DNA of 64,000 bases from a virus, in the IMG/VR virus record IMGVR_UViG_3300045988_133735; one strand, 5' to 3'. Positions within the stretch are counted from its first letter, which is position 1. Each line of letters begins with the position of its first letter. The notes beneath the pieces were generated by a model. It ran no database searches, had not been told where the DNA came from, and saw only the letters and a program-made list of their open reading frames with translations. A program made the translations under genes and the position numbers. Below, in pieces: positions 30,863 through 50,144 of the stretch.

Positions 30863-31186
30863 CATCGAGATGAATACGTATTTCAGTTACGGCTGCCGGT
30901 TGACCGACAGTTACGCAAAGGTAGGATGAGGTATCCCGGGGCGGAGGGGCCTGCTTTCAGCCTCTGAACGAGTCGACGGAGTCAGACCCAGAACCACTGA
31001 ACGCCGAGCAAGGCGATTTGGTTGCAAAACGCCCGAAACTCAACAAAGTAGCTCATCAAAGTTCGACAGAAGCTCATCAATTGAACTCAATCAACGCGAG
31101 TTGAACGGGTACTGATCAACTTCGGGACCTTTTTAAGATCAATCTTGAGAGCTTAAAAGAGCAACAACATCATTTAGATCTCGATG
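30863..31186 (+). ncRNA. retron-like structured element X1 (orphan paralogue of the element upstream of the RT)
   Basis: Closed by the 9-nt inverted repeat CATCGAGAT (30863-30871) / ATCTCGATG (31178-31186). Contains GAATAC, the 18-nt hairpin CTGCCGGTTGACCGACAG (30893-30910), and CATTTAGA before the right repeat. Confidence 0.4.
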
Positions 31187-33044: not shown

Positions 33045-33157
33045 TGGTGCAGGGTCTTTCCTTTCTACCTGTGCCTATTGTGTGTATAAAACGGTTTCCA
33101 TTAGACGAAACCGCGTGGCTGAAAATGCCGAGCAGGTACGATAATCCTGCCTTATAT

Positions 33158-33544
33158 GGGCCCGAAAGGTTTTCGACAGGGCTATGAAAATTCACAATTC
33201 GCAGGTCGGCCATCACCTTACGAGGCAAAAAACAATAAACGCTAACTACAATAGTTATCGCTGCGCGGCTTGATGCCGTGCCCAAAACAGCATCCTGATA
33301 GGCAGGTAAATGTTTGATGGTTCAAAGAATAAATCCCGGAACCCGATGTAAACGGTAATAAACACCGGCGTTCTCGGACGCTAAAACCGAGTGGTGGAGT
33401 GATGTAACAAACCGTTACGTCCCTGGGTTTGCTGTGTTGGCGGCATGAATTCCTTTCAAAAATTCTAAATGCTAACTATTGCGTAAGAAGATTGTGTACG
33501 AGTAATAGTTCTGGACGTGGGTTCGAATCCCACCGGGTCCACCA
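33158..33544 (+). ncRNA. ssrA: tmRNA
   Basis: The 5' end is GGGCCCGAAAGGTTTTCGACAGGG. The 3' end is GGACGTGGGTTCGAATCCCACCGGGTCCACCA. The acceptor has a G3-U70 pair. The internal tag frame is ..AAA ACA ATA AAC GCT AAC TAC AAT AGT TAT CGC TGC GCG GCT TGA (33229-33273). Confidence 0.85.
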
Positions 33545-33907
33545 GTGGCGCAAGCCGCAAAGCTAGGTTCGATGCGACAGCGTAGTGTAGTGCGAGGTCG
33601 CTGGGGTGGCGCAATTCCACCGTGGATGCAATGCATTCATAACGCTTTGACCGAAATTGTGCGAACAGACTGCGACGGGGTAGCTCCTCGTGGAGTGAGG
33701 GTCTGGTGACAACATGAGTAGGCGATAGGATGACCTGCGAAAGTGGTCTAGTCAGTTTGGTGCCCGGACTGGCGGAGAGTGGATTTAAAAGGGCAGCCTT
33801 TGAGGATGGACTCTGGGGAAGACAAAATGTACCTAGTTGTATCTGCTGACGCGGTTAAGTCGCATTGCACATCGCCGATGCTGTTACATGGTTAAATCCT
33901 CCTCTCT

Positions 33908-33983
33908 GTGGCGTTAGTTCAGTTGGCAGAACACTTGGCTCATAACCGAGTAGTCGTGGGTTCAAAGCCCTCACGCCGCACCA
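33908..33983 (+). tRNA. tRNA-Met or tRNA-Ile2 (CAT), elongator type
   Basis: GTGGCGT TA GTTC-AGTTGGCA-GAAC A CTTGG-CTCATAA-CCGAG TAGTC GTGGG-TTCAAAG-CCCTC ACGCCGC A CCA. Confidence 0.8.
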
Positions 33984-34026
33984 TTTCGTGTACGAATATC
34001 AACAAATCAAAAAGAGGTAAATCAAA

Positions 34027-34290
34027 ATGGCTGAGAATGCAGCTAAAAATACCGAAAGATATCAATCCTATAAACTTCAATGGATGTTGGATCATGGACA
34101 CACATTAGAGGAAATTTTTAGAGAACTCTACATGATTCAAAAGGAATACTTGGAAGACGGAGAGTCATGCCCAAGCATTTGGACGTTGTTGGATCGATGG
34201 GAAAAGGATATTGGGTTTGGTGGAGAATGTTGGGCTTGCTTTGATGAATGGCTGGAGAATGAAGGTAGAGAGGTAAATCAAAATGGCTGA
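34027..34290 (+). CDS. hypothetical protein
   Basis: 87 aa. Its RBS and start are identical over 22 nt to those of the next gene. Confidence 0.5.
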   Translation: MAENAAKNTERYQSYKLQWMLDHGHTLEEIFRELYMIQKEYLEDGESCPSIWTLLDRWEKDIGFGGECWACFDEWLENEGREVNQNG

Positions 34291-34954
34291 CAAGTATCTC
34301 AGTATCATTACAAACTTCGGCTGCCACTATAGCTGCCCTGAGTGTATTGTCCGCAATAACAAGCTCAAGATGACACCGACAGACGAGTATTCTTCTTATA
34401 TGCAGTTAGAGCATGTTCTGAAGAACGAATGTAATGACTGTAATTGGGTATCTGTGTCTGGCGGCGGTGATCCACTTTATCACTGGTGGGAACATCAGGC
34501 GTGGTGGACAGGATTCTTTTCGGTGTGTAAAGAACTTGGTCGCAAGATTGAGTTGCATACGAGCTATTATGATTTTGATCATGATGATGGAATTTTAATG
34601 TTTCCATTCGAACAGTTTGATAGAGTTGTGTATCATTTGCATTGTGCAGAGGAGCTTTATAAGATTTGTCGCCGGGGTAAAGAAATCGTTCGAGTGGTAT
34701 TCGTTGTGGACGATTCTATGGACGAATACGAAGTTAGCAGGATTTCAGCTATTGTTCAAGAAAGCGACGATATCGACGAGCTTACATTCCGGCAACGCGT
34801 GGATGCAAACTATAAGCCGACCTATCATTTGCGCGGTCTCCTGCTGGCGGGGCATAAAAAGGCTTGGTGGTATGTGACACAGTGCGATTACAATACTTAC
34901 TTCCACAACGGTAAACTGTACACGAAGTACACGGATATCTTTGAGAAGGAGTAA
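34283..34954 (+). CDS. radical SAM enzyme (minimal, 223 aa)
   Basis: CxxxCxxC cluster motif FGCHYSCPEC near the N-terminus, and a SAM-binding GGE-like motif VSGGGDPL. Confidence 0.65.
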   Translation: MADKYLSIITNFGCHYSCPECIVRNNKLKMTPTDEYSSYMQLEHVLKNECNDCNWVSVSGGGDPLYHWWEHQAWWTGFFSVCKELGRKIELHTSYYDFDHDDGILMFPFEQFDRVVYHLHCAEELYKICRRGKEIVRVVFVVDDSMDEYEVSRISAIVQESDDIDELTFRQRVDANYKPTYHLRGLLLAGHKKAWWYVTQCDYNTYFHNGKLYTKYTDIFEKE

Positions 34955-34959
34955 TTCAG

Positions 34960-35268
34960 ATGTACATTGTCGTAAGCGATTATACCAACGAAAAAGTTGA
35001 CATCTACAAATCAGTAAGTTTCGATAAAGCATTTCAGGCGAGAAGCGATGCGATTGATTTTGCTGCCCGTAGCTATCAGAGCTTCTTTGACAATATGCCC
35101 AGCGATGAAGCTGCACGGTATGAAAACGCAACGCGAATTAACACTGACTCTTATGCGGATTTCTGTGGGTGTGCTTTGTGTCCGTATCCCGAGTATGCTA
35201 TCGGAGCTGCGGTTGATAATGGTGAAGATAATCACATGTACTACATGGTATTTAAGGTGGAGGAGTGA
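34960..35268 (+). CDS. hypothetical protein
   Basis: 102 aa with an AAGGAG RBS. Confidence 0.5.
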   Translation: MYIVVSDYTNEKVDIYKSVSFDKAFQARSDAIDFAARSYQSFFDNMPSDEAARYENATRINTDSYADFCGCALCPYPEYAIGAAVDNGEDNHMYYMVFKVEE

Positions 35269-35360
35269 TTTCATGAAGCGATACCTTGTAAGCGTTTGGA
35301 TACGACAGTCTTATTCCATTTGTGGCAAAAAGCTGAGACCGGATTCTGAGGTAGTAAGTT

Positions 35361-35585
35361 ATGAAAAAACATAAAGATTTATTGCTGGCAGCCTGCGCAT
35401 CGGCTGTTTCGTTTTTGAGTCTCGATGATGTTTTTGAGAAACTTCTACGGCACATCTCGCTTGTTCAAATGGCAACAGGAAACATAAGTTCTCTTTACGG
35501 ACGTGTCAGCGAGTTGGCTCTTTCGGTATCTGTGGCTCTGTCGCTTGCGATTGGAGCTGTGGTATATATTTTATTCAAAAATTAA
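35361..35585 (+). CDS. small membrane protein
   Basis: 74 aa with N- and C-terminal hydrophobic segments. Lies upstream of the SPFH gene (an NfeD-like role is speculation). Confidence 0.45.
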   Translation: MKKHKDLLLAACASAVSFLSLDDVFEKLLRHISLVQMATGNISSLYGRVSELALSVSVALSLAIGAVVYILFKN

Positions 35586-35597
35586 AAGGAGGAACGA

Positions 35598-36509
35598 ATG
35601 AAGAAGTTCAAAAAGATTTTCGTGGTTTCGTGTGCAATCGTGATGGCGTTGACCTTTACGGGGTGTACCAAGAAAGAGGTGTATACAATCGAACCTCATG
35701 AAACTGCATTTCTGATTTCACTCTCTGAGGGCGGTGGGAAACAGGCGTCCTTTGAGAGTGAGGCAATGCTCGCTGAAGCAAAGGTGGCAGCCAAACAGGT
35801 GTACATTACTTACTCGAAGCGACATCTGTCGCCGACTGACATCATTGGTACTTGGGTACCGGATAACATGTTGGTTGTCGTCAATAGAACTCCTGTTACT
35901 CGTGAATGGTCCGAGGGCAAGGACAGTGGCACCAGCACTGTCAACCAGTCCATCTCTGCCGAAAGCAAGGAGTCTATTGGCTTCTCTGTCGGTATGAACT
36001 GCTCTGCTCAGATCTACACTGAAAACGATGCAGTCAAGTTCCTGTATTCCTACAACAACAAACAGCTCTCCGAGATTATGGATACTGAAATCCGTGCTCG
36101 TGTTGAAGCTGACTTTGTTGAAATGTGCGCCAAGTACACCATGAATGAGATCCTTGAGAAGAAGGCCGAGATCATGGAGTATGTCCGCAAGGATGTGACT
36201 GAGTATTTTGCAGAACGCGGTATCACGATTACTGTCCTTGGTATGAAGGATGGCATTGAGTACGACGATGCGTCTGTTCAGGCTGCTATTAACAAGTCCT
36301 TTGTGGCTGAGCGCAATGATGAGGCGCAGGAGATTGAGAATCAGACTAAGATTTCCAAGGCGAACGCAGAAGCCGAGGCGAATAAAATCATCTCTGAGTC
36401 TCTGACTGACCGGCTGATTCAGCAGCAGATGTATGAAAAGTGGGATGGTAAGCTTCCTACTTATGTCGGCGGCGATGCCAGCATTCCTGTACTGAACGAT
36501 ATGAAGTAA
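35598..36509 (+). CDS. SPFH/band-7 (prohibitin-like) lipoprotein
   Basis: 303 aa with a lipobox (ALTFTGC). SPFH-like core followed by an Ala/Glu-rich coil (AEANKIISE). Confidence 0.55.
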   Translation: MKKFKKIFVVSCAIVMALTFTGCTKKEVYTIEPHETAFLISLSEGGGKQASFESEAMLAEAKVAAKQVYITYSKRHLSPTDIIGTWVPDNMLVVVNRTPVTREWSEGKDSGTSTVNQSISAESKESIGFSVGMNCSAQIYTENDAVKFLYSYNNKQLSEIMDTEIRARVEADFVEMCAKYTMNEILEKKAEIMEYVRKDVTEYFAERGITITVLGMKDGIEYDDASVQAAINKSFVAERNDEAQEIENQTKISKANAEAEANKIISESLTDRLIQQQMYEKWDGKLPTYVGGDASIPVLNDMK

Positions 36510-36598
36510 CCTCGTAGGAACGGAGACATTAAACCCGTGTCCTGAGATCAACACAAGATCTAAAAACTGTGTGGCAGCTCGGAAAGACGAGCAAGTAT

Positions 36599-36681
36599 GT
36601 TTCGGTGCTGGAATCGGCAGACAGGGGAGTCTCAAAAACTTCTGCGAAAGCATGTGGGTTCAAGTCCCATCCGAAACACCA
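36599..36681 (+). tRNA. tRNA-Leu (CAA), class II
   Basis: GTTTCGG TG CTG-GAATCGGCAGA-CAG, GGAGT-CTCAAAA-ACTTC, variable arm TGC-GAAA-GCA, GTGGG-TTCAAGT-CCCAT, CCGAAAC A CCA. Confidence 0.8.
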
Positions 36682-36804
36682 TGGGTGAGTTGCGTCGCCC
36701 AAAAATCTCCTTTTCCTCACAAATGCTTAGTGGCTCATGAGTTCCAGACATGAATCACCGTGACTGAACAAGTCGTAGCAGGTACGCAATCCTGTTTTTG
36801 ATAA

Positions 36805-36890
36805 GTCGGTATGGTGGAATAGGCGAGACACGTCTGCTTTAGGGACAGATGCTTAAGTGCATGTGAGTTCAAATCTCACTACCGACACCA
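36805..36890 (+). tRNA. tRNA-Leu (TAG), class II
   Basis: GTCGGTA TG GTG-GAATAGGCGAGA-CAC, TCTGC-TTTAGGG-ACAGA (one C-A mismatch), variable arm ATGC-TTAAGT-GCAT, GTGAG-TTCAAAT-CTCAC, TACCGAC A CCA. Confidence 0.7.
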
Positions 36891-36948
36891 ATCTCGCATG
36901 GGTAGGATCTTTAGCGGTCAGATCCGGCCGCGCCTGTGCGAGATACCA
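36891..36948 (+). ncRNA. tRNA-minihelix-like element ending in ACCA
   Basis: ATCTCGCA ... TGCGAGAT forms an 8-bp closing stem around the GGATC-TTTAGCGGTCA-GATCC hairpin, followed by ACCA. It abuts the CCA end of tRNA-Leu(TAG). Confidence 0.3.
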
Positions 36949-37040
36949 CCCCCCTGTGGGGAATGTTAAATTTTTCCATGTACGTTATTCTCGGCTCGCT
37001 CGAAAGAGTGCAGCGTGCCTTTGTAAGCCGAGTATTTTAT

Positions 37041-37109
37041 GTGGCTGTAGCTCAGATGGTAGAGCAGCAAGCTAACTGCGCGCCGTTGGTTCAAGTCCAA
37101 CCAGTCACT
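37041..37109 (+). tRNA. aberrant tRNA-like gene (3-bp anticodon stem; loop AGCTAAC, possibly CUA)
   Basis: Canonical acceptor (GTGGCTG/CAGTCAC), D arm (GCTC-AGATGGTA-GAGC) and T arm (GTTGG-TTCAAGT-CCAAC). Only 19 nt separate the D and T arms, where 22-23 are expected. Confidence 0.45.
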
Positions 37110-37228
37110 CCGATGCCCGCTTATAGGGTCTCATTCCTCCTATTCGGGCTTTACCTCTTTTCTTCCTTGTTATTCCCGGCTCCATGGCGAATGCTGTGGC
37201 AATAAGGCGTAGTAAGCTGGGTTTATAT

Positions 37229-37303
37229 GCAGCGGTCGTACATCGGCTAGTATATCAGCCTTCCAAGCTGAGGAGGTGGGTTCGACTCCCATTCGCTGCT
37301 CCA
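37229..37303 (+). tRNA. tRNA-Gly (TCC)
   Basis: GCAGCGG TC GTAC-ATCGGCTA-GTAT A TCAGC-CTTCCAA-GCTGA GGAG GTGGG-TTCGACT-CCCAT TCGCTGC T CCA. Confidence 0.8.
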
Positions 37304-37611
37304 TCGTGTGCGACGGTTTGAGACTCCTACATGCAAATCCAGCCGGGTAAGTCCGTCCACAACCGGTGTAGGTAGACATCTTTACTCATTAGGTCTCTAA
37401 CTAAATGAGGAATAGAAAATCAGTTGTTCCAGCTAGATCGGGGATTGGCCGTTCATTGGCAAACGACAGGCATCACACCGGTAAATGATGCTGAGCCAAA
37501 TAGGAAGGGGAATAAGGTGCAAGTCGAGTAGCTGTCGGACGAATACTCTTCAGGTAGCCAGTAAACTGGAACGTAAAACGAATGTTGGCTGTTTCTGATT
37601 TTCTTTTATAT

Positions 37612-37698
37612 GCTACCATGATGTAACTGGCAGGCATGAGGGACTTAAAATCCCTTGCTGGAAACAGCGTGCGGGTTCAAGTCCCGCTGGTAGCACCA
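37612..37698 (+). tRNA. tRNA-Leu (TAA), class II
   Basis: GCTACCA TG ATG-TAACTGGCAGG-CAT G AGGGA-CTTAAAA-TCCCT, variable arm GCTG-GAAA-CAGC, GCGGG-TTCAAGT-CCCGC TGGTAGC A CCA. Confidence 0.8.
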
Positions 37699-37739
37699 TT
37701 GTTCGAATATCAACACATAAAAAATAGGAGCAAAACAAC

Positions 37740-37988
37740 ATGAATATCGTTATTGAAACTAAGGACGACAAATATGTAGCCGGTGTTTATGCTGACGAGG
37801 GAGAGAATACCGAAAACGATACGATCATTGATTGTGCTGTAAACGGGCTTCTTGCTATTATTCGTTTTTATATTCTTAAAGACGAAACCCTTACGATGGA
37901 AAACAAGAAGAATGTTGTGTCTGACCTATGCGATGAAATTAAGAAAAAGCTTTTGGAAGCAATTGAAGAGGAGAGCGCAGTCGTATGA
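37740..37988 (+). CDS. hypothetical protein
   Basis: 82 aa with a TAGGAG RBS. Confidence 0.5.
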   Translation: MNIVIETKDDKYVAGVYADEGENTENDTIIDCAVNGLLAIIRFYILKDETLTMENKKNVVSDLCDEIKKKLLEAIEEESAVV

Positions 37989-38661: not shown

Positions 38662-38919
38662 GTGAAGGTTTATGTTCTTTATGACTGTGTCGAAAATCCA
38701 GACGAGTGGGCGTTTGCTGGTGTTGAACACATTTATGCGAATCATGCAGACGCGGTAGATCGGATGCAGGATTTGTTCTTAGAGTGTTTGAACGAACACG
38801 ACATAAATAATGCAGAAAGTATGCGAGATAGCTATATTGACGATTGGGGAGCGCGTGTCGCGGACGTTCCGGCTGGTTATCGTCACACATGGACAATTAC
38901 AGAGGAGACAGTTGTATGA
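38662..38919 (+). CDS. hypothetical protein
   Basis: 85 aa with a GTG start after GAGGTG. Confidence 0.5.
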   Translation: MKVYVLYDCVENPDEWAFAGVEHIYANHADAVDRMQDLFLECLNEHDINNAESMRDSYIDDWGARVADVPAGYRHTWTITEETVV

Positions 38920-39140
38920 AATACGATTTACATGTTGGGCAATTAGTTAGAATCGGCAATGAAGTGTCTGAAAACGATGTGAATCGCAACAAAAGAGGGC
39001 GCATCGTAAGATTTGATAAAGATTACCCAGTTGTAGAGATGTTAGACCCATTTACAAGTGGAGAAACAACGATTACTTGGTGCCCGCAGAGACTTTGGGA
39101 GCCGTGTCCAACAAAACTTACTTGCAAATCACTTCTGTGA
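38916..39140 (+). CDS. small beta-rich paralogue with C-terminal tail (CKSLL)
   Basis: The start is taken at MKYDLHVGQLVRIG (ATGA overlap). Ends PTKLTCKSLL-stop. Confidence 0.6.
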   Translation: MKYDLHVGQLVRIGNEVSENDVNRNKRGRIVRFDKDYPVVEMLDPFTSGETTITWCPQRLWEPCPTKLTCKSLL

Positions 39141-39897: not shown

Positions 39898-40137
39898 ATG
39901 ATTAAGATTTGGGTTACCACTAATGACGACAAGATCGAGGACGTTGTTGCTACCAGCATGACCCCGAAGGACGTGTTCGCAAAGCATGGCGTGAACTACG
40001 CCAATGGCCAGAGCACTCTGGATGGCTGCATTCTGACGGTGGCACAGCTGAACACTCCGCTGTCTGAGCTGGGCGTCGGCGATGAGGTGTATCTGGCCTC
40101 CATCTCCAAGCACGACAATGCGACTGGTATGAACTGA
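39898..40137 (+). CDS. small ubiquitin-like (beta-grasp) candidate
   Basis: 79 aa. Its size and its position upstream of the JAB and E1 genes support the call, along with the pattern LDGCILTVAQLNTPLSELGVGDEVYL. There is no terminal GG (ends NATGMN). Confidence 0.3.
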   Translation: MIKIWVTTNDDKIEDVVATSMTPKDVFAKHGVNYANGQSTLDGCILTVAQLNTPLSELGVGDEVYLASISKHDNATGMN

Positions 40138-40280
40138 TCGCGCTGATCCGAAAATAAACAACTGAATTCGTTATTGGTTACAACGATATTCTAAACACTG
40201 CAGCCGCTGGCAGGCCGGTTAAAGTCTGCCTTATATGTGTCCAGTATCTGGGCTTTTAAATTAAACAGGAGGAAATACAT

Positions 40281-41798
40281 ATGGCTTTCACAGCTTATTC
40301 CAGCAAGATCGGTTCGAGAGATTGCGACGAAGCATATCCGTTGATTCTGAATTGCGACAATAGCAATCTCAACGATAATGTGATGTTGTCTGTACTGCGC
40401 GTACTGATCAATGATGACCGTATCAAGCATTCTATTTCGGGAGGGCATCGCATTCAGTCAATTATTGATTGCCAACAGTTCTATATGGGCGACGACGAAA
40501 AGTTCACTAAGGACATGTTCGTTCATGAAGATAACGCTTTCAATCAGATGAAATTTGGCATCATGTTTCAGACGATCGACGATAAGAAAGCAGACGCCAT
40601 TATTTCTGAGTTCAAGAAGTACAATGCGGATTACGAAGCTGCCGGTTGGAAGATCATGGATGTCGCAGCTAAGTACATCGATAAGAATGGCAACGTCTAT
40701 GTATATCAGAATGAAAAGAAGCAGGGTGTTGTCGTTGTTTGTGCTAAGAAGAATCTGATTCAGGCCATGCACATGGCGGCGAGTTGTTTGCCAAACCTGA
40801 TGCCGTGGTTTTTCGCTGATCAGCCGCTGACTGATGATGAGAAGGCGATGCTGCGTACTCTTTATGATCAGGACAACGAAGCTTTCGGCAAATACATGGA
40901 GAAGGCATACGAGACCGGCGATTTCTATGGTAAGAAGTTGCGTGGCGCTCTGAAGGGATTTTGCAAGAAGGATTATGCAAACGAAATTACCCGGCAGGAG
41001 CGATATATTCGTGAAATCCAAGATGAAATCGAAAGAAAATATAACGATATCCGTGAGAGAAATAAAAATCTTGAAGAAGCTCAATTTAAACTCACTATGA
41101 TCATGGACCGTGCTTGCTGCACTGAGGATGACGAAGCTGCAATTGTTAATTTCCTGAAGCGCTGCAAGACGCTGGTTTATCTTGACTCCAATAGTGATCG
41201 AATCTCTATTGGTTATGTTGGCACGCTAAACGATTGTGATGAGGGCGAGTTCCGCACTTGTGTTGAGAAAAAGGCAAATAGTCGAAGCTACATTTTTCAG
41301 CGTTCGCCGTATGACACGGAACTTACGAAAGATTTCTTTGTGTCAATTTGGAAGACCCATCGGTTCGCTATTCGCACCTACTGTGAATGGCGACTGTATT
41401 CCAGCTGCAAGGTTGAAGCAATTCGTGGTTCTGATATGCAAGGTCGCTCTGATTTGATGAAGGATCGTATTCGTCAGCCCCATATCGATCGGCATGCGTG
41501 CTATAGCGGTTATCGAGAGATGCTCAATGCGCTTAGTGTAAAACACGATTACATTGGCGTCCTGACTACGATTATTGGTTCAAGCGCATCTATCAACTGG
41601 AAGGATGGCACCGTTGTAAGCGACCTCATGTACGATTTGTTTGACGAATCCTATATCAAAACTCGTAAGTGTATCGAGGATAACGCGGGTAATCTGTACA
41701 CGGTGGCAGAAGTATTTGATATTCTCAAGAACGAAAAGGACGCAGCAGCAACAGCAGAAGCAGTAAAGAAGGAGGTCGCTAAAGATGAAGCCCATTAA
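40281..41798 (+). CDS. large cassette protein, possible E2-like C-terminal region
   Basis: 505 aa between the Ubl candidate and JAB. The C-terminal QPHIDRHACYSGY resembles an HPN..C E2 active-site context (weak). Confidence 0.3.
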   Translation: MAFTAYSSKIGSRDCDEAYPLILNCDNSNLNDNVMLSVLRVLINDDRIKHSISGGHRIQSIIDCQQFYMGDDEKFTKDMFVHEDNAFNQMKFGIMFQTIDDKKADAIISEFKKYNADYEAAGWKIMDVAAKYIDKNGNVYVYQNEKKQGVVVVCAKKNLIQAMHMAASCLPNLMPWFFADQPLTDDEKAMLRTLYDQDNEAFGKYMEKAYETGDFYGKKLRGALKGFCKKDYANEITRQERYIREIQDEIERKYNDIRERNKNLEEAQFKLTMIMDRACCTEDDEAAIVNFLKRCKTLVYLDSNSDRISIGYVGTLNDCDEGEFRTCVEKKANSRSYIFQRSPYDTELTKDFFVSIWKTHRFAIRTYCEWRLYSSCKVEAIRGSDMQGRSDLMKDRIRQPHIDRHACYSGYREMLNALSVKHDYIGVLTTIIGSSASINWKDGTVVSDLMYDLFDESYIKTRKCIEDNAGNLYTVAEVFDILKNEKDAAATAEAVKKEVAKDEAH

Positions 41799-42681
41799 TA
41801 TCACGGAGCAGGTTGTAGCAGATATGGCACGTGAATTTGTTCAGGAGCTGTATAAGACCGGTAGGGTTAAGACGGATTCTTTCTCATACAAGAAGAATTT
41901 TGCGTCTGTTAAAAAGGATGCTGTCGAGGTGAATTTCACCTATGAAGCGTATTCTCAGATGTTTGCGTTGATTGATCACTTCGATTGTGAGGTTGCATGG
42001 CGCGGCATTGTGAATCGTATCGATAAGACGCATTTTCAGATTACCAAGATTCTGCTGTATCCTCAGACTGTGACTGGTACCACAGTGGACACCGATCAGG
42101 AAGAATTTTCAAAGTGGTTTCAGGCGCTGCCTGTTGAAACGATTCGCAACCTGAGATTTCAGGGACACAGCCATGTCGATTTCGGTGTAACGCCGAGCAG
42201 TCGCGATATGGAGGATCAGTGGCGATTCATTGACGGACTCAAGCCGACGAGTTATCAGATTTTTATGATTTGGAACAAGAAGCGTCAGTATAACGTTCGC
42301 GTCATTGATCTGGCCGACAATGTCATCTATGAGGGAGCCGATGTCAAGGTTACTGTTGGAGATTTTGACTCGACTCGATTTCTCGAGGATGCAGACAAAA
42401 CGGTTCGAAAGCGCCCTGTATATGTCGCAAGCACAGTCGCAAATTACGGAGCTTATGGAGCAGGCACCTATTATGGTAAAGCAGTTACGCCGCAAAAAAC
42501 GTACCCGCAAACAGTTACCACGCAAACGCCAGTGCCGCAAATCAAGACGGTAACTGGCGCAGCGGCTCCGAAAGTCAAGGAAGTGTCTGAGACTCGATAT
42601 CCATTGGTCAATCATTACAAGGAGAATCCAGAAGATCTTGATACGTGCTGGAATTCCAGCTGTTTTCCGTATGACAATTAA
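41785..42681 (+). CDS. JAB/JAMM (MPN+) metalloprotease
   Basis: 298 aa with the exact JAMM pattern H-S-H-x7-S-x2-D (GHSHVDFGVTPSSRD) and an upstream Glu (CEVAWRG). Confidence 0.7.
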   Translation: MKPINITEQVVADMAREFVQELYKTGRVKTDSFSYKKNFASVKKDAVEVNFTYEAYSQMFALIDHFDCEVAWRGIVNRIDKTHFQITKILLYPQTVTGTTVDTDQEEFSKWFQALPVETIRNLRFQGHSHVDFGVTPSSRDMEDQWRFIDGLKPTSYQIFMIWNKKRQYNVRVIDLADNVIYEGADVKVTVGDFDSTRFLEDADKTVRKRPVYVASTVANYGAYGAGTYYGKAVTPQKTYPQTVTTQTPVPQIKTVTGAAAPKVKEVSETRYPLVNHYKENPEDLDTCWNSSCFPYDN

Positions 42682-42696
42682 AGAAAGGACTACAAA

Positions 42697-43371
42697 ATGA
42701 ATCTGAGTAAGCTTGAAATGGTATTCAACCCCGATGATATCAGCGGCCAGATCCACATTGTTGGTTGTGGTTCGGTTGGCTCCACTGTGGCGGAACTTCT
42801 CGCACGGTATGGTCTGAAGAATTTCACGCTGTGGGATATGGACGAGGTCGAAAGTAAGAATATCGTTAACCAGATGTTCTTCGCCAACAATATTGAAGCT
42901 CCAAAAGTCGAGGCGGTTCGCGATATTATCTGCGCCATCAATCCTGATGCCAAAGATGAAATCGTTCTGAAGCCGAATGGTTGGCAGGGCGAGATGATTC
43001 GCGGTTATGTATTCCTCGCGGTCGACAATATCGAAATTCGCAAGCAGTTCATGGAAGCGAACAAGTACAACCCGAACATCAAGGGTGTGTTTGATATCCG
43101 CACTGGGTTCCATGATGCACAATGCTGGGCAGCAGATTGGAGTAAGGACAAAGACCGAGAGAATTTATGGAATTCTATGAATTTCTCTCATGAAGATGCA
43201 CAGGCTGGCACTCCGGTTTCCGCATGTGGTATCGTTCAGGGTCTCGCCCCGACTGTTCGTTTCGTGTGTTGTTTGGCGGTTACGAACTTTATCAATTTCG
43301 CGACTAATATCGCACCTTTGAAGAAAATGATCGTTGCAAATCCGTACACTTTTAACGTTACGGCTGCATAA
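42697..43371 (+). CDS. ThiF/MoeB/E1-like adenylyltransferase (short form)
   Basis: 224 aa with a Rossmann motif IVGCGSVGS and DMDEVESKNIVNQ (DxDxVxxSNxxRQ-like). Confidence 0.7.
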   Translation: MNLSKLEMVFNPDDISGQIHIVGCGSVGSTVAELLARYGLKNFTLWDMDEVESKNIVNQMFFANNIEAPKVEAVRDIICAINPDAKDEIVLKPNGWQGEMIRGYVFLAVDNIEIRKQFMEANKYNPNIKGVFDIRTGFHDAQCWAADWSKDKDRENLWNSMNFSHEDAQAGTPVSACGIVQGLAPTVRFVCCLAVTNFINFATNIAPLKKMIVANPYTFNVTAA

Positions 43372-43385
43372 AGAATAAATAAAAA

Positions 43386-43650
43386 AAATCGTGATGAATT
43401 ACTGTTGAAACATACAGTCCTGCCGGATGACCGACAGGTTCGTAAAGGTAAGATCATATACATCCCACCGGGAAACCGAGGCGTGTGATCGCATGCGACG
43501 TACGTCGACTCCGCAGGTATGCTGATTCGCTGATCGAAATAATCAACGTAGGTACGTACCGGCAATGAGCTCAAAACGCAAACTCGCAGGAAGGACGTCC
43601 CGTCGAAGGCACCTCCCTGAGCATACAAACCACCATTTAGATCACGATTT
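43386..43650 (+). ncRNA. candidate retron msr-msd type ncRNA (element X2)
   Basis: The 265-nt gene-free segment directly 5' of the RT is closed by a perfect 10-nt inverted repeat, AAATCGTGAT (43386-43395) / ATCACGATTT (43641-43650). It contains the hairpin CTGCCGGATGACCGACAG (43419-43436). Confidence 0.5.
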
Positions 43651-43665
43651 AGAAGAGGTAAACAT

Positions 43666-44901
43666 ATGTACGTTACTTATTGGAATCCGCCGAGAACAAG
43701 GCAGATTACGTTTGATGAAATCCTTAGTGGAGTCGTTGACGTGAACCAGTTGAAATATGCTGGCGATGAAACTTCTACTCGAACTGTACAGCGTAATGGG
43801 TTGAATGATCGTCTCGTAGCAATTACAAACGTTACCAATATGATTGCACGGCTCGCGGAATTCAATCAGAAATACGCTCGTCTTGAAGCAGTACGTGACC
43901 TGTCGACGTATTACTATCACTTTGAAATCCCTAAGAAGACCGGCGGCTTTCGTCCAATTGATGCACCGACTAATGAATTGAGCGATGCGTTGGTTGAGTT
44001 GCGGACGCTGTTAAAAAGTTTCATGATTGCTGATTATCACACGGCAGCACACGCATATATCAACGGGCGCGGCACTCTAAGTGCAATTAAAAAGCATCAG
44101 GCAGGGCACAGATATACAGTAAAAGATCGTGAGACTGGGAAAGAAAAGATCGTCACCTATGAAAATAACTGGGCTGTCAAGTTTGACTTTCATGGATTCT
44201 TCCCGAGCTCCACTCCTGAGTTTATCTACGGTATGTTCAGAAAGATTTATCCGTTTTCTCTCATTATGAAGGATCGAAATGGATACAACCAGCTGACTAA
44301 AGCGATGCGTCTGTGCTTCTTGAACGGCGGTCTTCCGCAGGGAACACCAATCAGTCCGTGGATCACGAACGTTATGATGATCCCGTTTGATTATATGTTA
44401 AACAAGAAGCTTTCTTACAAATATACCATGAAAGACGGCATTTCTCGCACTTTTACATACACCAGATATGCAGACGATATCACCATCAGCTGCTATTTGA
44501 GTTTTGACCCGATGGAAATGCAGGATATTATCAAAGAGACGTTGGATGCAATCAATGCTCCGTTTACTTTGAATGAAGAAAAAACGCATTATGGTAATCG
44601 GCATTCGAGCGAAAACTGGATGCTCGGTCTGATGTGGAACGCCAATAACGATATCACAGTCGGATGGCGCAATTTTAAGGACTTCAAGAAGATGGCATCT
44701 AATTACATCGTCTGCAAGAAAGAAGGAAAAACGTGGGATCTTGAAGACCTGCAGCAGTTTAATGGCAGGTTGAATTACTACCGTATGGTAGAAAAAGAAG
44801 CGGTCGACACAGTGATCTCTCGGTACAACGAAAAATATCGTGTTGATATGATGGCAATGCTCAAAGCTGACTTAAAACCAAAAGAAGGAGTTGTTTTCTA
44901 A
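43666..44901 (+). CDS. reverse transcriptase, retron/retron-like type
   Basis: 411 aa with the RT motifs IPKKTGGFRPIDAP, KFDFHGFFPSS, GGLPQGTPISPWITN and YTRYADDITISC, plus the thumb-like WMLGLMWN. Confidence 0.8.
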   Translation: MYVTYWNPPRTRQITFDEILSGVVDVNQLKYAGDETSTRTVQRNGLNDRLVAITNVTNMIARLAEFNQKYARLEAVRDLSTYYYHFEIPKKTGGFRPIDAPTNELSDALVELRTLLKSFMIADYHTAAHAYINGRGTLSAIKKHQAGHRYTVKDRETGKEKIVTYENNWAVKFDFHGFFPSSTPEFIYGMFRKIYPFSLIMKDRNGYNQLTKAMRLCFLNGGLPQGTPISPWITNVMMIPFDYMLNKKLSYKYTMKDGISRTFTYTRYADDITISCYLSFDPMEMQDIIKETLDAINAPFTLNEEKTHYGNRHSSENWMLGLMWNANNDITVGWRNFKDFKKMASNYIVCKKEGKTWDLEDLQQFNGRLNYYRMVEKEAVDTVISRYNEKYRVDMMAMLKADLKPKEGVVF

Positions 44902-45239
44902 TGATTGAAATGATGTGTAGAGATGGCGGCACTCCAGTTGAATTGCTCGATCAAGCGGCAAGTGTCGTAGAGGAATCCATCGGGTGTCCAGTTGACCTGT
45001 TGGATATCGACGACCACAGAGCAATGGTCTATTGGGGGCCGTCTGATGTTGCAAGCGCAATCAAGGAGCTTGGCATCAAAGAAATCGATGCAGAGGATAT
45101 GAGCTTATGTGCAGATCTCTTGTGCGATTTTGAAGTGAATATTCATCAGGCAATGCTTGAGGCCGGACACGACGCTCTACAGAGCTGTTTGGAATGTCTT
45201 GTTGATGAACTGCGAAAACAGGACAAAGAATCCAAGTAA
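44901..45239 (+). CDS. small acidic protein translationally coupled to the RT
   Basis: 112 aa with a TAATG overlap with the RT stop. Confidence 0.5.
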   Translation: MIEMMCRDGGTPVELLDQAASVVEESIGCPVDLLDIDDHRAMVYWGPSDVASAIKELGIKEIDAEDMSLCADLLCDFEVNIHQAMLEAGHDALQSCLECLVDELRKQDKESK

Positions 45240-45250
45240 TTATATATTGT

Positions 45251-45580
45251 AATCTCTTTTGAATATCGGGCGTTTTACGTCGCGAGCTGCCGGATGACCG
45301 ACAGTTATGAAGAATACCATAGCACGCTCATACGGGCTCCATGGGCTGCCTGAGTTGGCAGCCTCGCCCTCCTGAGCTATGGATCAAATTAGTTCGCAAG
45401 GGCGGAGTCTCCGTTCTGCAGCCTAATCCCAGCAGAGCTGGAGATCGCGGCTGCAATCGCTGCGACTCATTGGCCATCAGAACATTTACTCGACAATGCT
45501 TCCGGGATCAAAGATCCCTCCAAATTATCTCGCAAATGTTCTTCTAGCCAAACTGTTACTCACAATTTAGAAAAGAGATT
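45251..45580 (+). ncRNA. retron-like structured element X3 (paralogue)
   Basis: Closed by the 10-nt inverted repeat AATCTCTTTT (45251-45260) / AAAAGAGATT (45571-45580). Contains GAATATC, the hairpin CTGCCGGATGACCGACAG (45287-45304), and AATTTAGA before the right repeat. Confidence 0.4.
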
Positions 45581-45584
45581 GATT

Positions 45585-45845
45585 ATGGATTACAAATATA
45601 AAATTGGACAAAAAGTACGAATTCGGAAAGACTTGACAGCCGGCGCAGAATATCCAATGCAAAGCGGAAGTCGTTGCGGTTGGGGCCCGGGAGTAGCTGA
45701 GGATATGGAAAAATACCGAGGGCAGATTATGACAATTGATTATATTAAAGGCTATTATACCCTCTGCGAAGATAATAGATCGTGGTCGTGGAGCGACACA
45801 ATGTTCGAAACACAAAAGCGGCTTACATGTAAAAGTCTTTTGTAA
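45585..45845 (+). CDS. small beta-rich paralogue with C-terminal tail (CKSLL)
   Basis: MDYKYKIGQKVRIRKDL...WSWSDTMFE...QKRLTCKSLL-stop. Confidence 0.6.
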   Translation: MDYKYKIGQKVRIRKDLTAGAEYPMQSGSRCGWGPGVAEDMEKYRGQIMTIDYIKGYYTLCEDNRSWSWSDTMFETQKRLTCKSLL

Positions 45846-45859
45846 AGGAGTGAATTTTA

Positions 45860-46675
45860 ATGGCAGAAACCGCAAAGAAAGTGGCACAAAAAACCATTCT
45901 TTTCCCAGTTGAAGATCGGCCTGCAAAACTCGTCGTTACAGAGGACGATATTGAACGAATTATTCAGCAGGCCGTTAAAAGTGCCACTGCAACGAAAAAA
46001 GCACGGAAACCTCGTCGGACGGATAGTCTTTATCTCAAGGATGGGCGCAGAAAGCCAACCCCGGCAGATCCCATCAAGTCAAAGGAAGATTTCAAGAAGA
46101 TTGTTGATTACCTTGGGTCTAACGGACCTGAAGAAATCGCGCTTAGAAATAAAACGATGTTCATTCTCGGTTGTTCAATTGGTGTTCGATGCGGCGATTT
46201 GTTGAAGCTTAAAACGGCTGATGTTTATTATGAGAACGCTCATGTAAAAGATCATGTTGAACTGATCGAGCAGAAGACCGGCAAGCGAAACGTGTGTAAG
46301 ATTTCTCATATGGCAAAAGAAGCTTTAAGAGAATATTATCAGGCAATTGGTTTTCGAATTGACCGTGACACGCTTCTTTTTCAGAGCAAGAAAGGTGGAC
46401 AGCTTAACGTTAGATCGGTGAGCAACCTTTTGAAGAAAGCTGGTAAGGCGTGTGGTTTAAATATTGAGTTATCTACTCATAGTATGCGTAAAACTTATGC
46501 CATGGCAGCATTACAAAGCGCTGAGGGTACAGTTGATGGAGCGAACATCTTGAATATTCTCCAAACAAAATTTAATCACAGCGACCAGCGTATTACGATG
46601 AGATATATCAAAATGGATCAAGAAAAACTTGATGAAGTCTCTGAAAATGTTTCTGACTGGTTTGAAGGAGAATGA
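45860..46675 (+). CDS. tyrosine recombinase / phage integrase family
   Basis: 271 aa with Arg in GVRCGDL, HxxR in THSMRKT, and the catalytic Tyr context ITMRYIK. Confidence 0.7.
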   Translation: MAETAKKVAQKTILFPVEDRPAKLVVTEDDIERIIQQAVKSATATKKARKPRRTDSLYLKDGRRKPTPADPIKSKEDFKKIVDYLGSNGPEEIALRNKTMFILGCSIGVRCGDLLKLKTADVYYENAHVKDHVELIEQKTGKRNVCKISHMAKEALREYYQAIGFRIDRDTLLFQSKKGGQLNVRSVSNLLKKAGKACGLNIELSTHSMRKTYAMAALQSAEGTVDGANILNILQTKFNHSDQRITMRYIKMDQEKLDEVSENVSDWFEGE

Positions 46676-46678
46676 ACT

Positions 46679-46951
46679 ATGAACTATAAGTTTAAACCCG
46701 GAGATAAAGTAACAGTTAGAAAAGATTTATCAGATCGTAAAATATACAAGATGTTGTCAGGAGAAACTCCATATGATGACATTATTGCTATTCATTCTAT
46801 GGAAAATCTTCGAGGGAAACAAGTAACAATCGAGAGTTATGATTGTTGTGGGAATGTAATGTGTTACAGGGTAAAAGAAAGCTCCAGATATTGGACAGAT
46901 GAAATGTTCGAAGAATCTAAAAAACCGTTTACATGTAAAAGTTTATTATGA
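46679..46951 (+). CDS. small beta-rich paralogue with C-terminal tail (CKSLL)
   Basis: MNYKFKPGDKVTVRKDL...YWTDEMFE...KKPFTCKSLL-stop. Confidence 0.6.
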   Translation: MNYKFKPGDKVTVRKDLSDRKIYKMLSGETPYDDIIAIHSMENLRGKQVTIESYDCCGNVMCYRVKESSRYWTDEMFEESKKPFTCKSLL

Positions 46952-46967: not shown

Positions 46968-47252
46968 GTGTCGAAAAGCAAGTACAAATATAAGAATGAA
47001 GAAGCAGTTCGCGTCAGGGAAGATCTTCAATCTGGAACAGTTTATTACATGAGATCCGGTCCAGAACCGGATACCAATGGTGTGGAGACATCATGGAGTG
47101 GACGTGGGCAAGTAGGTTATCGTGGACAAATTGTACATATTTCTCACAAGGCAAACGGTCGATACAAAATTCTTGAAGACGGAAAAACATATTATTACAC
47201 AGATGAAATGTTTGATCGTCCAAAGAACTTAATTTGCAAAAGTTTGTTGTGA
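46968..47252 (+). CDS. small beta-rich paralogue with C-terminal tail (CKSLL)
   Basis: GTG start. ..AVRVREDL...YYTDEMFD..PKNLICKSLL-stop. Confidence 0.6.
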   Translation: MSKSKYKYKNEEAVRVREDLQSGTVYYMRSGPEPDTNGVETSWSGRGQVGYRGQIVHISHKANGRYKILEDGKTYYYTDEMFDRPKNLICKSLL

Positions 47253-47261
47253 GGGTTTGAA

Positions 47262-47519
47262 ATGGAATACAAGTATAAACCCGGCGACAAAGTTAGAGTC
47301 CGCCCAGATCTTCATGAGTCCGGAAGTTACAAAATGGTAAGTGGAACAAGACGAGGATTTAGCCCCGGAGTTAATAGTGCTATGTGTAGTTACGCTGGTA
47401 AGATTGCAACGGTTTCACATTGCTACATTACATATGTTTTAGAAGGATTCGGTAATTGGTCGTGGAGTGATGAAATGCTTGAGCCGGCTAAACCGCTTTG
47501 TTGCAAATCATTGTTGTGA
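47262..47519 (+). CDS. small beta-rich paralogue with C-terminal tail (CKSLL)
   Basis: MEYKYKPGDKVRVRPDL...WSWSDEMLE..AKPLCCKSLL-stop. Confidence 0.6.
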   Translation: MEYKYKPGDKVRVRPDLHESGSYKMVSGTRRGFSPGVNSAMCSYAGKIATVSHCYITYVLEGFGNWSWSDEMLEPAKPLCCKSLL

Positions 47520-47807: not shown

Positions 47808-49872
47808 TTTCAAGAAATTTCGTGCGCTGCTGCAGGACCACTTCAATGAGATGGTGAAGAGTGAGAATCCACTGTTTGTCACTGACGCTGATGAGGATGA
47901 ACTGTACAATCTGTATCTTGACAGCTTCCCGGCTGGCACGAATGAGCTGTTCCGTAAGCGTCGTGAGTATGACTGTTCCTGCTGCCGCCGTTTTGTAAAG
48001 AATATCGGCAAGCTGGTGGCGTTTGACAAGAATTATAATTTGATTTCCATCTGGGATTTCGATGCAAAGTCTGCCAAATATCAGCCTGTTGTTGATGCAC
48101 TGGCCGCCTATGTAAAGAGCCGCGCCATTGTGAATCCGTACTTTGTCAGTCGCAATATGATCGGTTCTGGGGACATGTTCGGCACCGAGATGAACTACGA
48201 GTACGATGAAAACCACAAGGATGTGCATACTTGGGATCATTTCGCAGTCAAGATTCCGCAGCGTTTTATTACCAGTGGAGATGACGTGGCTACCAAGATG
48301 GCACAGTGGCGTGACTCCGCAAACGTGTTCAAGCGTTCTCTGGAAGAGCTAACCATGGAGGCTGTTGATACTGTGCTGGAGCTGATTGCGCAGAATAGCC
48401 TGTATCGCGGCAAGGAGTTTGAGCGGTCTGTAAAGGAGTTTAAGCACGATAAGATTGATTATGACAAACTGTCTGTTAATGAAAAGGTTGCCTTTGTATG
48501 GCTTGCTCCTACATATGCTACGGCAGCGCAGCTTCGCATTCGTAACACCGCTATCGGCACCCTTCTTATCAATTTGAGCGAAGGTATGGATGTGGATTCT
48601 GCCGTTACTGCCTTTGAGAAGGTAGTTGCTCCTGCAAACTATAAGCGTCCAAAGGCGATTTTCACCAAGAAGATGCTGGAAGATGCACAGAAGACTGTCA
48701 CCGAGCTGGGTTATATGAGCAGTCTGGGCCGTCGGTTTGCTACTCTGGACGATATCACCGCCAATAATATCTTGTTCTGCAACCGTGATGCTGCTCCTCG
48801 TGTGCTTGGCGCTATGAATCCGTTTGAAGCAATGGCTAAGACTGTTGCGATTGACCCCAAGAAGTTCGGCCGCGCAGAGGAAATCAGCATTGATAAATTC
48901 ATTAAAAATGTGCTGCCGACTGCGACTGGGCTGGAACTGTTCATGGAGAATCGTTTCGAGAAGAATATGATGTCTCTGATTGCTCCGCAGGATAAAAATG
49001 CGCCGTCTATGTTCAAGTGGGCAAATGGCTTCAGTTGGGCGTATGCCGGCAATATGGCAGACAGCGATATTCGCGAAAATGTTAAGGCTGCTGGCGGCAA
49101 GGTCGATGGTGTGCTGCGTTTTTCTATTCAGTGGAACGATAAGCCGGGCGAGTGGGATGAAAACGATGAGGATGCTCATTGCATTGAACCCGATAAGAAT
49201 CATATCTATTTCAGCAACAAGTGGCACCCTCGTACTGATGGCCGCCTGGATGTTGATATCATTCATCCTAATCATGGTAAAGCTGCGGTCGAGAATATTA
49301 CATGGCCTGACATCGAAAGGATGAAGGAAGGTGAGTACAGCTTCTATGTGAACTGTTTTACTAGTCGTGGAGGTAAAACTGGTTTCCGTGCTGAGATCGA
49401 ATTCGATGGCAACATCTACTCGTTTAACTATGATAAGCCGCTGCATCAGGGTCAGAATGTCTCCGTGGCAAAAGTCACGCTGAAGGATGGCAAGTTCTCT
49501 ATCAAGGAGCTGCTGCCCAGTTCTACCAGTACCCGCGAGATCTGGGGTGTGAACTCCAATCAGTTTGTGCCTGTTTCTGTGGCAATGTATTCTCCGAACT
49601 ACTGGGATGAGCAGACTGGTAATGGCAACCGCCACTACTTCTTTATGCTCAAGGATTGCGTCAACCCTGAAAAACCCAATGGCTTCTACAATGAATTTCT
49701 GAAGGCGGAACTGTTACAGCATAAGCGAGTATTTGAGGCTCTCGGTTCTCAGATGGCAGTCCAGTCAGTAGATGACCAGTTGTCTGGCGTTGGATTCTCT
49801 GAGACGAAGCATGATTCCTTCATTGTTAAGGTGCAGGGAGCTACTGAGCGAGTTCTGAAAGTGGTGATTTAA
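47800..49872 (+). CDS. large hypothetical protein
   Basis: 690-aa uninterrupted ORF. No motif I can assign. It is followed by a tail paralogue, a coiled-coil protein and an AAA+ ATPase. Confidence 0.6.
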   Translation: MSDFKKFRALLQDHFNEMVKSENPLFVTDADEDELYNLYLDSFPAGTNELFRKRREYDCSCCRRFVKNIGKLVAFDKNYNLISIWDFDAKSAKYQPVVDALAAYVKSRAIVNPYFVSRNMIGSGDMFGTEMNYEYDENHKDVHTWDHFAVKIPQRFITSGDDVATKMAQWRDSANVFKRSLEELTMEAVDTVLELIAQNSLYRGKEFERSVKEFKHDKIDYDKLSVNEKVAFVWLAPTYATAAQLRIRNTAIGTLLINLSEGMDVDSAVTAFEKVVAPANYKRPKAIFTKKMLEDAQKTVTELGYMSSLGRRFATLDDITANNILFCNRDAAPRVLGAMNPFEAMAKTVAIDPKKFGRAEEISIDKFIKNVLPTATGLELFMENRFEKNMMSLIAPQDKNAPSMFKWANGFSWAYAGNMADSDIRENVKAAGGKVDGVLRFSIQWNDKPGEWDENDEDAHCIEPDKNHIYFSNKWHPRTDGRLDVDIIHPNHGKAAVENITWPDIERMKEGEYSFYVNCFTSRGGKTGFRAEIEFDGNIYSFNYDKPLHQGQNVSVAKVTLKDGKFSIKELLPSSTSTREIWGVNSNQFVPVSVAMYSPNYWDEQTGNGNRHYFFMLKDCVNPEKPNGFYNEFLKAELLQHKRVFEALGSQMAVQSVDDQLSGVGFSETKHDSFIVKVQGATERVLKVVI

Positions 49873-50144
49873 TGGCTCGTTACAAAGTTGGGGACAAAGT
49901 GCGCTTAATCGATAATTTTGTGCAATATAAAGAGTATTTTATGCGAGATCGGAATAACAATCCCGGATATACTATAACAGTCAAGTGGTCATTAGAAGAA
50001 AGAATGGAACTTGCTGGAAAAATTGTGACGATTTCTGAAGTCGGAGAATACTACCGAATCGAAGAAGACGACTATCGTAAACATTGGACTGATGATATGT
50101 TTGTTGGCACGGCAAAATGTTTTGTTTGTCGGTCATTACTGTAA
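49872..50144 (+). CDS. small beta-rich paralogue with C-terminal tail (CRSLL)
   Basis: MARYKVGDKVRLIDNF...HWTDDMFV..AKCFVCRSLL-stop. Confidence 0.6.
   Translation: MARYKVGDKVRLIDNFVQYKEYFMRDRNNNPGYTITVKWSLEERMELAGKIVTISEVGEYYRIEEDDYRKHWTDDMFVGTAKCFVCRSLL

Follow-up and report, generated by a model that had tools for sequence, protein, structure and literature searches.

The window, by which we mean the whole 64-kb stretch of virus DNA analysed here, carries a predicted reverse transcriptase (RT) of the retron lineage accompanied by several paralogous structured RNA units, and this module of an enzyme and an RNA array is found again in many related phages and seems to be undescribed. The 265-nt flank upstream of the RT gene, which forms unit c1 (Table 1), is a real structured RNA whose closing stem (P1) and inner bulged hairpin (P3) covary among relatives sharing 35-99% RT identity. 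On the analogy with retrons, we consider it somewhat probable that the retron-derived RT would self-prime on several such RNA units and so yield several small cDNAs during infection.

ORF 43666-44901 is predicted to encode an intact RT. All the motifs quoted in the initial annotation as a full RT set could be read in it (IPKKTGGFRPIDAP, FDFHGFFPS, LPQGTPISP, YTRYADDITISC and WMLGLMWN), and the catalytic residues show no variation in 18 homologues. In Pfam the protein was matched by RVT_1 only (E = 1.6e-13), whereas the best PADLOC models were retron RTs in 25 cases out of 25 (RT_II-A at 2e-37). The order obtained with NCBIfam was retron_St85 (2e-43), followed by Ec67, retron-TIR, group II (4e-16), Drt2 (3e-10) and Drt3a; none of these matches reached its curated cutoff, retron_St85_RT scoring 148 bits against a cutoff of 235 bits. 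When a profile of 18 homologues was searched against the PDB, Ec83 (6e-28) and Ec78 (3e-25) came first, with group II GsI-IIC (2.5e-11) and DRT2 (2.7e-5) among the lower matches. An AlphaFold (AF2) model of the enzyme (pLDDT 84) was then compared by Foldseek: the 12 top matches were all retron RTs, with target TM-scores of ~0.36-0.73 (0.63-0.73 against stand-alone retron RTs), and group II, DRT9, DRT2 and DGR enzymes ranked below them. Both the sequence profile and the predicted fold thus assign the RT to the retron lineage, although it appears to fall outside every curated retron family. The earlier view of a retron-like RT, distinct from the DGR and group II types, is in agreement with these searches, in which group II, DRT and DGR enzymes were all worse by orders of magnitude. 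Region X reads AIKKH and is aligned to NAKIH of Ec83 (NAxxH), and region Y reads MLG where Ec83 has VTG. The residues H144 and G321 are invariant across the family, H and G being the most conserved residues of the retron NAxxH and VTG motifs (PMC7736814). Solved retron RTs have nothing equivalent to the ~65 residues at the N-terminus or to an insert located around aa 146-166.

The module resides in a family of ~70-150-kb gut phages of Clostridia. Homologues of the RT number in the thousands and are unnamed. Those from IMG/VR are borne on contigs of up to ~150 kb and form three tiers of RT identity (~98%, 65% and 45%), while those from GTDB (35-45% RT identity) come from contigs that were for the most part binned with Clostridia MAGs. 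No close relative is carried by any cultured phage, our literature searches returned no description of the clade or of its RNA, and no Rfam 15 family matched any unit, either at the gathering score or at E values up to 10. Two human-faecal phage contigs (25-27% RT identity) considered as UG27 references were rejected, as they encode canonical retron RTs with NAxxH and VTG.

The initial annotation had drawn attention to a perfect 10-nt inverted repeat bounding the RT flank and ending 15 nt before the RT, and this observation is exact: the arms AAATCGTGAT and ATCACGATTT are exact complements, and 15 nt separate the end of the right arm from the RT ATG. Taken by itself the repeat nevertheless lies within chance and is weak evidence, because the 2.5-kb stretch around the RT contains four perfect inverted pairs of 10-11 nt and because the single-sequence fold of c1 is no better than that of shuffled sequences (z = -0.77); it becomes significant only by comparison with relatives. 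ORFs can be called mechanically over the c1 flank (59 aa on the plus strand and 130 aa on the minus strand), yet the relatives display 1-2-nt indels and compensatory changes there, and the description of the flank as gene-free was correct in substance.

Table 1. Coordinates of the RT, the RNA units and the neighbouring genes in the window.
Feature	Position	Strand	Description
Conserved 79-aa protein	39898..40137	+	First gene of the syntenic operon
Conserved 505-aa protein	40281..41798	+	Carries PNPHIDRYSCLGNY motif; syntenic in all tiers
JAMM/MPN+ metalloprotease-like protein	41785..42681	+	298 aa; RPN11 E = 0.004; PADLOC JAB 0.003
ThiF/E1-like adenylating enzyme	42697..43371	+	Pfam ThiF E = 6e-21; PADLOC E1-E2 models; last gene of the upstream operon
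ncRNA unit c1	43386..43650	+	Covariance model 4.3e-5
c1 P1 5' arm	43386-43395	+	AAATCGTGAT
c1 conserved G	43396		
c1 P2 hairpin	43401-43418		
c1 P3 bulged hairpin	43420-43437		Followed by variable interior and A/C-rich tail
c1 opposing G	43640		
c1 P1 3' arm	43641-43650	+	ATCACGATTT
RT	43666..44901	+	411 aa; predicted retron lineage; YADD; N-terminal extension ~65 aa; insert ~aa 146-166
Small acidic ORF	44901..45239	+	112 aa; overlaps RT stop codon by one base (TAATG); translationally coupled
ncRNA unit c2	45251..45580	+	Covariance model 0.027; fold z = -5.4
c2 P1 5' arm	45251-45260		
c2 conserved G	45261		
c2 P2	~45266-45285		
c2 P3	45287-45304		
c2 opposing G	45570		
c2 P1 3' arm	45571-45580		
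ncRNA unit c3	30863..31186	+	Covariance model 9.3e-5; fold z = -2.8
c3 P1 5' arm	30863-30871		
c3 conserved G	30872		
c3 P2	~30877-30891		
c3 P3	30893-30910		
c3 opposing G	31177		
c3 P1 3' arm	31178-31186		

The 18-mer CTGCCGGATGACCGACAG, located in P3 of c1, recurs exactly at 45287 in c2 and with one mismatch at 30893 in c3, which lies 12.5 kb upstream of the RT, for a chance expectation of 0.02. A covariance model of the 5' module recovered exactly three units from the 64-kb window, namely c1, c2 and c3, the next match having E = 0.29. These units of ~265-330 nt share a common layout consisting, from 5' to 3', of a P1 arm, an unpaired G-N-A-U, P2, the bulged P3, a variable interior, an A/C-rich tail ending in UUUAG and the other P1 arm. 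Their P1 sequences differ (AAAUCGUGAU, AAUCUCUUUU and CAUCGAGAU) and each possesses its own exact complement: relative to c1, the P1 of c2 is fully different in sequence with complementarity kept, and that of c3 shows a compensatory swap from U-A to A-U. A fourth candidate, at 37393-37883 on the minus strand, was rejected as chance, being devoid of P2 and P3 and overlapping both a tRNA and an ORF.

Across the relatives, 91.7% of the P1 cells pair, compared to 31-52% in slid controls, in statistics that include some c2 units of alignment A4 found with a stem filter. Both sides have changed in 9 of the 10 P1 pairs; the sequences are entirely different between paralogues and between lineages, and the stem survives complete sequence replacement. 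For P3, 87% of the cells pair versus 32-50% in slid controls, and double changes were observed in 7 of 8 pairs. P2 and P3 together were recovered in single-sequence folds of 45 units, and RNAalifold applied to full-length units retrieved P1-P3 with no stable interior consensus. Three sets are free of the stem-filter bias: the c1 units, located by position, c3, located by the 18-mer, and 61 further downstream units (206-377 nt) located by the 5'-module model alone, in which the 3' arm is not included. Of these 61 units, 44 have a closing stem no shorter than 7 bp at the expected place, for a chance level estimated at ~5%, and 42 of the 44 stemmed units carry a G directly before the P1 3' arm. 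In a search conducted without base constraint, a G was found on each side of the P1 inner end in 35 of the 51 best long-range stems, and alignment A4 shows the G as invariant. GATC is enriched 3-fold, partly from the AG/AUC junction, which distant units do not have. Two opposing Gs at the a1/a2 end are a hallmark of retron ncRNAs (PMC7736814, Fig. 2B legend), and one to three short hairpins are a stated hallmark of the retron msr (PMC7736814). The a1/a2-type geometry proposed for the flank is upheld here in the form of a true closing stem, two opposing Gs and two short msr-like hairpins; conservation and covariation of the inverted repeat in homologous loci, on which the initial annotation had made its proposal depend, were both observed for P1.

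We took a census of the arrays from model matches with E < 0.1 in 95 loci. All 159 covariance-model matches, out of 159, fall on the RT strand and cluster immediately upstream and downstream of the RT, and the units are found alongside the enzyme over 35-99% RT identity. The usual array comprises one unit upstream of the RT and one to three directly downstream, the latter often arranged in tandem 20-45 nt apart, with some copies kilobases away. In every tier the upstream gap of the RT holds a unit with the same architecture and a different sequence, and across the relatives the end of this upstream unit lies 15-50 nt from the RT start codon, as in retrons. The 98%, 65% and 45% tiers all have orthologues of c2 on the downstream side of the RT; units of the c1 and c2 types are long-separated paralogues, and the orthologues of each keep their position throughout these three tiers. 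The close relatives of the window phage contain three unit copies per genome, and c3 is fixed there. P3 tends to be similar among the units of a given genome, as would fit its recognition by a single RT. The flank had initially been read as one msr-msd-like element; the a1/a2-closed structured RNA is real, but it has two paralogues in the window and belongs, in relatives, to arrays flanking the RT.

The interiors of the units differ strongly even between phages whose RTs are 97-99% identical. Since this variation includes compensatory changes and 1-2-nt indels, the interiors are structured RNA and not coding sequence. They form variable multi-helix folds of 170-250 nt, among which we found no common single long hairpin, and G content drops from 0.30 to 0.18 as the 3' part is approached. 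The msr-msd reading of the flank is in this respect not borne out, the interior being a hypervariable multi-helix RNA instead of a canonical long msd hairpin. None of the unit interiors has a second copy in the 64-kb window, which therefore contains no DGR-like target. A DGR was rejected as a candidate, as the 64-kb window holds no template/variable repeat pair and the DGR RT is a weak fold match.

The small acidic ORF that follows the RT had been put forward as a translationally coupled effector or partner. The coupling stands, owing to the TAATG overlap, but the proposed function fares less well. The ORF is common to the 98% and 65% tiers (44% identity to the 65%-tier ORF); the 45% tier examined lacks it, as do most distant loci. 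Given this distribution, the absence of a family in Pfam, PADLOC, NCBIfam and PHROGs and the small number of homologues (five were found), sequence comparison classes it as a lineage-specific accessory and not as a core partner. No known retron effector was detected next to the RT by PADLOC or Pfam.

On the upstream side, the gene order small protein, ~500-aa protein, JAMM and E1 is kept in synteny with the RT throughout the lineages examined, and this ubiquitin-like cassette is more than an incidental neighbour. The E...HSHx7SxxD motif of the JAMM protein is invariant in 7 homologues. The 505-aa protein, with homologues of 480-505 aa, has no PDB or Pfam match. The homologues of the 79-aa protein measure 76-79 aa and have a C-terminus made of K-x-D-N-A followed by 0-4 residues; a PDB profile search with this protein was empty, and it may be regarded as a candidate ubiquitin-like partner. 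Small proteins with a CKSLL tail were rejected as partners, being lineage-specific and showing no link to the RT. Co-transcription of E1 and c1 is likely, since only 14 nt lie between the E1 stop codon and c1 and since we found neither a terminator nor a promoter between them.

Starting from the RT lineage, the architecture and covariation of the RNA, the unit copy number, the placement on the RT strand and the E1/JAMM synteny, the reverse transcription of the units, branched-G priming, the extent of the cDNA and a biological role may be pictured by analogy with retrons. One RT would serve several paralogous RNA units, each of ~250-340 nt and each shut by the a1/a2-type stem P1. P2 and the bulged P3, which follow the 5' arm, would constitute the recognition handle of the RT in the manner of msr hairpins. 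P1 would set the conserved G after the 5' arm against the conserved G before the 3' arm, so that the 2'-OH of the 5' G could act as primer for the RT, as it does in retrons; copying would begin at the opposing G and would proceed back into the unit's A/C-rich 3' region. Each unit would then give rise to its own small RNA-linked cDNA, so that the infected cell would contain several different ones. As to their role, our guess is counter-defence or phage-phage competition, possibly coupled to the upstream E1/JAMM operon. A broader proposal, which we put forward as tentative and rather doubtful, is that large gut phages have adopted a retron lineage as a natural 'multiplexed retron', in which one RT and a diversifying unit array would provide a repertoire of small RNA-linked DNA for offensive use, whether counter-defence or action on rival phages, jointly with the conjugation-like operon of the small protein, JAMM and E1. 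In weighing the self-priming of the RT on its units, we counted against it the degenerate NAxxH and VTG motifs, the sub-cutoff RT scores, the lack of a long msd hairpin and of an adjacent effector, and the presence of several units per RT.

The alternative that comes nearest to the data in concept, and which we nonetheless hold to be unlikely, is that the units act as scaffold and template in the style of UG27 or DRT systems, with protein-based, 3'-OH-based or de novo priming and with free short ssDNA hairpins or repeats as products, such as have been reported from the arrays of UG27 phages. The UG27 RT, found in gut phages, belongs to class 2 of the UG/Abi RTs; it requires two accessory proteins (sORF and bORF) and comes with arrays of ~150-nt units that were shown to template 50-100-nt cDNA hairpins (PMC9226505; 10.64898/2026.09.22.753630); these units measure ~135-167 nt and possess AUCN7UANAG and UUYA motifs as well as a pseudoknot (PMC9226505, Mestre 2022; 10.64898/2026.09.22.753630, Minerva preprint). 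The concept is the same in both cases, that of a phage RT accompanied by arrayed ncRNA units which keep their structure while differing in sequence (10.64898/2026.09.22.753630; PMC9226505), and a multi-helix interior and several units per RT are closer to UG27 than to retrons. The RT itself argues otherwise, as it is nearer to retrons (1e-28 to 1e-43) than to DRT2, DRT3 and DRT9 (Drt2, Drt3a and DRT9 at 1e-5 to 1e-10), which served as class 2 UG proxies, so that UG27 itself is set apart indirectly. The active site is YADD here and YSDD in five tested UG27 systems, and units of 250-340 nt with a1/a2 stems and opposing Gs contrast with units of 135-167 nt carrying AUCN7UANAG and UUYA, motifs that we did not find at the unit junctions. 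Nor do accessory ORFs seem to be conserved here: where UG27 has its accessory proteins, the small ORF is present in two tiers only, and it is the upstream operon that is conserved.

It also seems improbable to us that the units are structured RNAs that undergo no reverse transcription, such as cis-regulatory leaders, processing sites or operon scaffolds, the RT being engaged in something else. The 3' ends of c1 and c2 are located just ahead of the ribosome-binding sites of the next genes, no convincing dedicated promoter or terminator was found for the units, and the interiors fold in complex ways, all of which would suit such RNAs; however, the tandem units of relatives have no ORF behind them, c3 and the gene after it are 220 nt apart and have a promoter-like site between them, the units accompany the RT over 35-99% identity, and the two-G junction geometry has no regulatory rationale. 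A DRT2-like rolling-circle copying, in which a repeat protein would be encoded by concatemeric cDNA, would take advantage of a closing stem that joins the template ends, and the c1 interior (183 nt) is indeed stop-free in one frame when concatenated. We judge it very improbable, because such a frame occurs in 9 of 45 units as compared to 10% of shuffles, and in neither c2 nor c3, because 1-2-nt indels separate the interiors and because the RT is far from Drt2; a Neo-like concatemer ORF was rejected as not being a property of the family. We give equally little credence to a mobile retroelement, in which the RT would have mobilised the units as SINE- or LTR-like repeats, or the units would be what is left of a group II intron. 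In its favour, the RT has direct repeats on both sides and one of the copies lies dispersed. Against it, c1 and c2, both with syntenically placed orthologues in every tier, are paralogues of ancient origin, close relatives have c3 as a fixed copy, we saw no target duplications, and the units gave no match to group II domain V/VI or to any other Rfam family. A group II intron had likewise been rejected as a candidate, with no Rfam domain V/VI match even at E = 10 and a group II RT model weaker than the retron models.

Retrons are known as host defence systems with one RNA per RT and a branched RNA-DNA msDNA as product, in which the msd forms one or two long hairpins and the effector completes a tripartite toxin-antitoxin. 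The module described here resembles them (Ec83/Ec78 of type I-A/I-B, and Ec86) in that theirs is the nearest RT by profile and fold, without RNase H domain, and in that an ncRNA lies upstream on the same strand, with an a1/a2 stem, two opposing inner Gs and one to three msr-like hairpins. It differs from them in being phage-borne and part of a fixed operon, in the N-terminal extension of an RT that stays below the curated cutoffs, in having no known effector, in the number of units (3 in the window genome, 2-4 near the RT in relatives), in long multi-helix interiors in place of a long msd hairpin, and in the degenerate NAxxH and VTG (AIKKH and MLG). Since the a1/a2 stem, the opposing Gs, the msr hairpins and the RT lineage agree with retrons, whereas the long msd and the effector are lacking and the motifs are degenerate, we call the element retron-like without counting it among the retrons. 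With DRT2 (UG2) it has in common a large structured ncRNA beside a stand-alone RT and a stem joining the template ends; the RT lineage, the lack of a conserved concatemer frame and the presence of several units instead of one set it apart.

The closest analogue in concept is provided by the UG27 phage RT-ncRNA arrays. Both occur in gut phages, of Bacillota and Bacteroidota, both combine one RT with a variable same-strand array of structurally conserved, sequence-diverse units, short cDNA templating is proposed or shown, and neither is found in a defence-island context; the present module is distinguished by its predicted retron-lineage RT with YADD, its 250-340-nt units with a1/a2 stem and opposing Gs, and the apparent lack of an obligatory accessory ORF. 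If the RT does self-prime on its units as we suggest, retron chemistry would be used on the viral side by a widespread phage-borne relative with fast-evolving template-like RNA arrays. After UG27, phages would then be seen for a second and independent time to produce sets of small cDNAs, which would point to a general, unexplained viral strategy, and the tie between the RT module and a ubiquitin-like E1/JAMM operon would become testable. A last parallel is offered by the engineered retron arrays, or multitrons, which are synthetic and in which one RT is combined with tandem msr-msd-like units (PMC10370050); the module reported here, with one RT and several tandem msr-msd-like units, would be their natural counterpart and could supply natural multi-template RT scaffolds for DNA-writing tools.

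The operon at 39898-43371 adjoins the module of the retron-lineage reverse transcriptase (RT) on its upstream side in every case, down to 35% RT identity. Its four products are listed in the table, among them a 505-aa protein whose PNPHIDRYSCLGNY motif resembles the HPN...C motif of E2.

The three paralogous ncRNA units of the window (c1, 43386-43650; c2, 45251-45580; c3, 30863-31186) together carry 11.9 GATC sites per kb as compared to 4.1 per kb in the window, an approximately 3-fold enrichment. Part of this enrichment is accounted for by the AG|AUC junction, which is absent from the units of distant relatives. When the interior of c1 (43458-43640, 183 nt) is joined head-to-tail, one frame is free of stop codons, as is also the case for the concatenated c1 interior of the compared locus L057; such a frame was not found in c2, c3 or most other units. 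In the tier of relatives at about 45% RT identity (L066, L075 and L083), a conserved T/C-rich non-coding stretch of ~190 nt, located at ~5560-5750 in L066, was observed between the downstream unit c2 and the next gene. Elsewhere in the window, we detected a twister ribozyme match and a tmRNA, the latter in the same region (32967-37695, plus strand) as seven tRNA genes.

Nine small ORFs of 67-90 aa, distributed over both strands of the window, share a C-terminal end consisting of C(K/R)SLL followed by the stop codon. A tyrosine recombinase gene (45860-46675) is located amid these ORFs. The family is restricted to the lineage of the window phage, and the conserved 3' ends of its members could be a DNA-level site, for instance a shufflon-like one.

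Features of the window and of two compared phage contigs
Feature	Location	Strand	Remark
C(K/R)SLL-tail ORF	11791-12012	-	
C(K/R)SLL-tail ORF	12249-12461	-	
C(K/R)SLL-tail ORF	13312-13575	-	
C(K/R)SLL-tail ORF	38889-39140	+	
C(K/R)SLL-tail ORF	45585-45845	+	
C(K/R)SLL-tail ORF	46679-46951	+	
C(K/R)SLL-tail ORF	47049-47252	+	
C(K/R)SLL-tail ORF	47262-47519	+	
C(K/R)SLL-tail ORF	49872-50144	+	
Type-P5 twister ribozyme match	25219-25308	+	Rfam, 47.1 bits, above gathering score
tmRNA, phage-borne	33158-33544	+	96 bits
79-aa protein	within 39898-43371		C-terminus K-x-D-N-A
505-aa protein	within 39898-43371		PNPHIDRYSCLGNY motif
JAMM protease	within 39898-43371		
ThiF/E1 enzyme	within 39898-43371		
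Canonical retron RT	L189 2728-3858		human-faecal phage contig
Canonical retron RT	L190 2769-4496		human-faecal phage contig

Canonical retron RTs are carried by the two human-faecal phage contigs MT836269 and MT836041 (L189 and L190). Exact NAxxH and (I/V)TG motifs are present in both enzymes, and one of the two displays a long C-terminal extension, as in Ec67.
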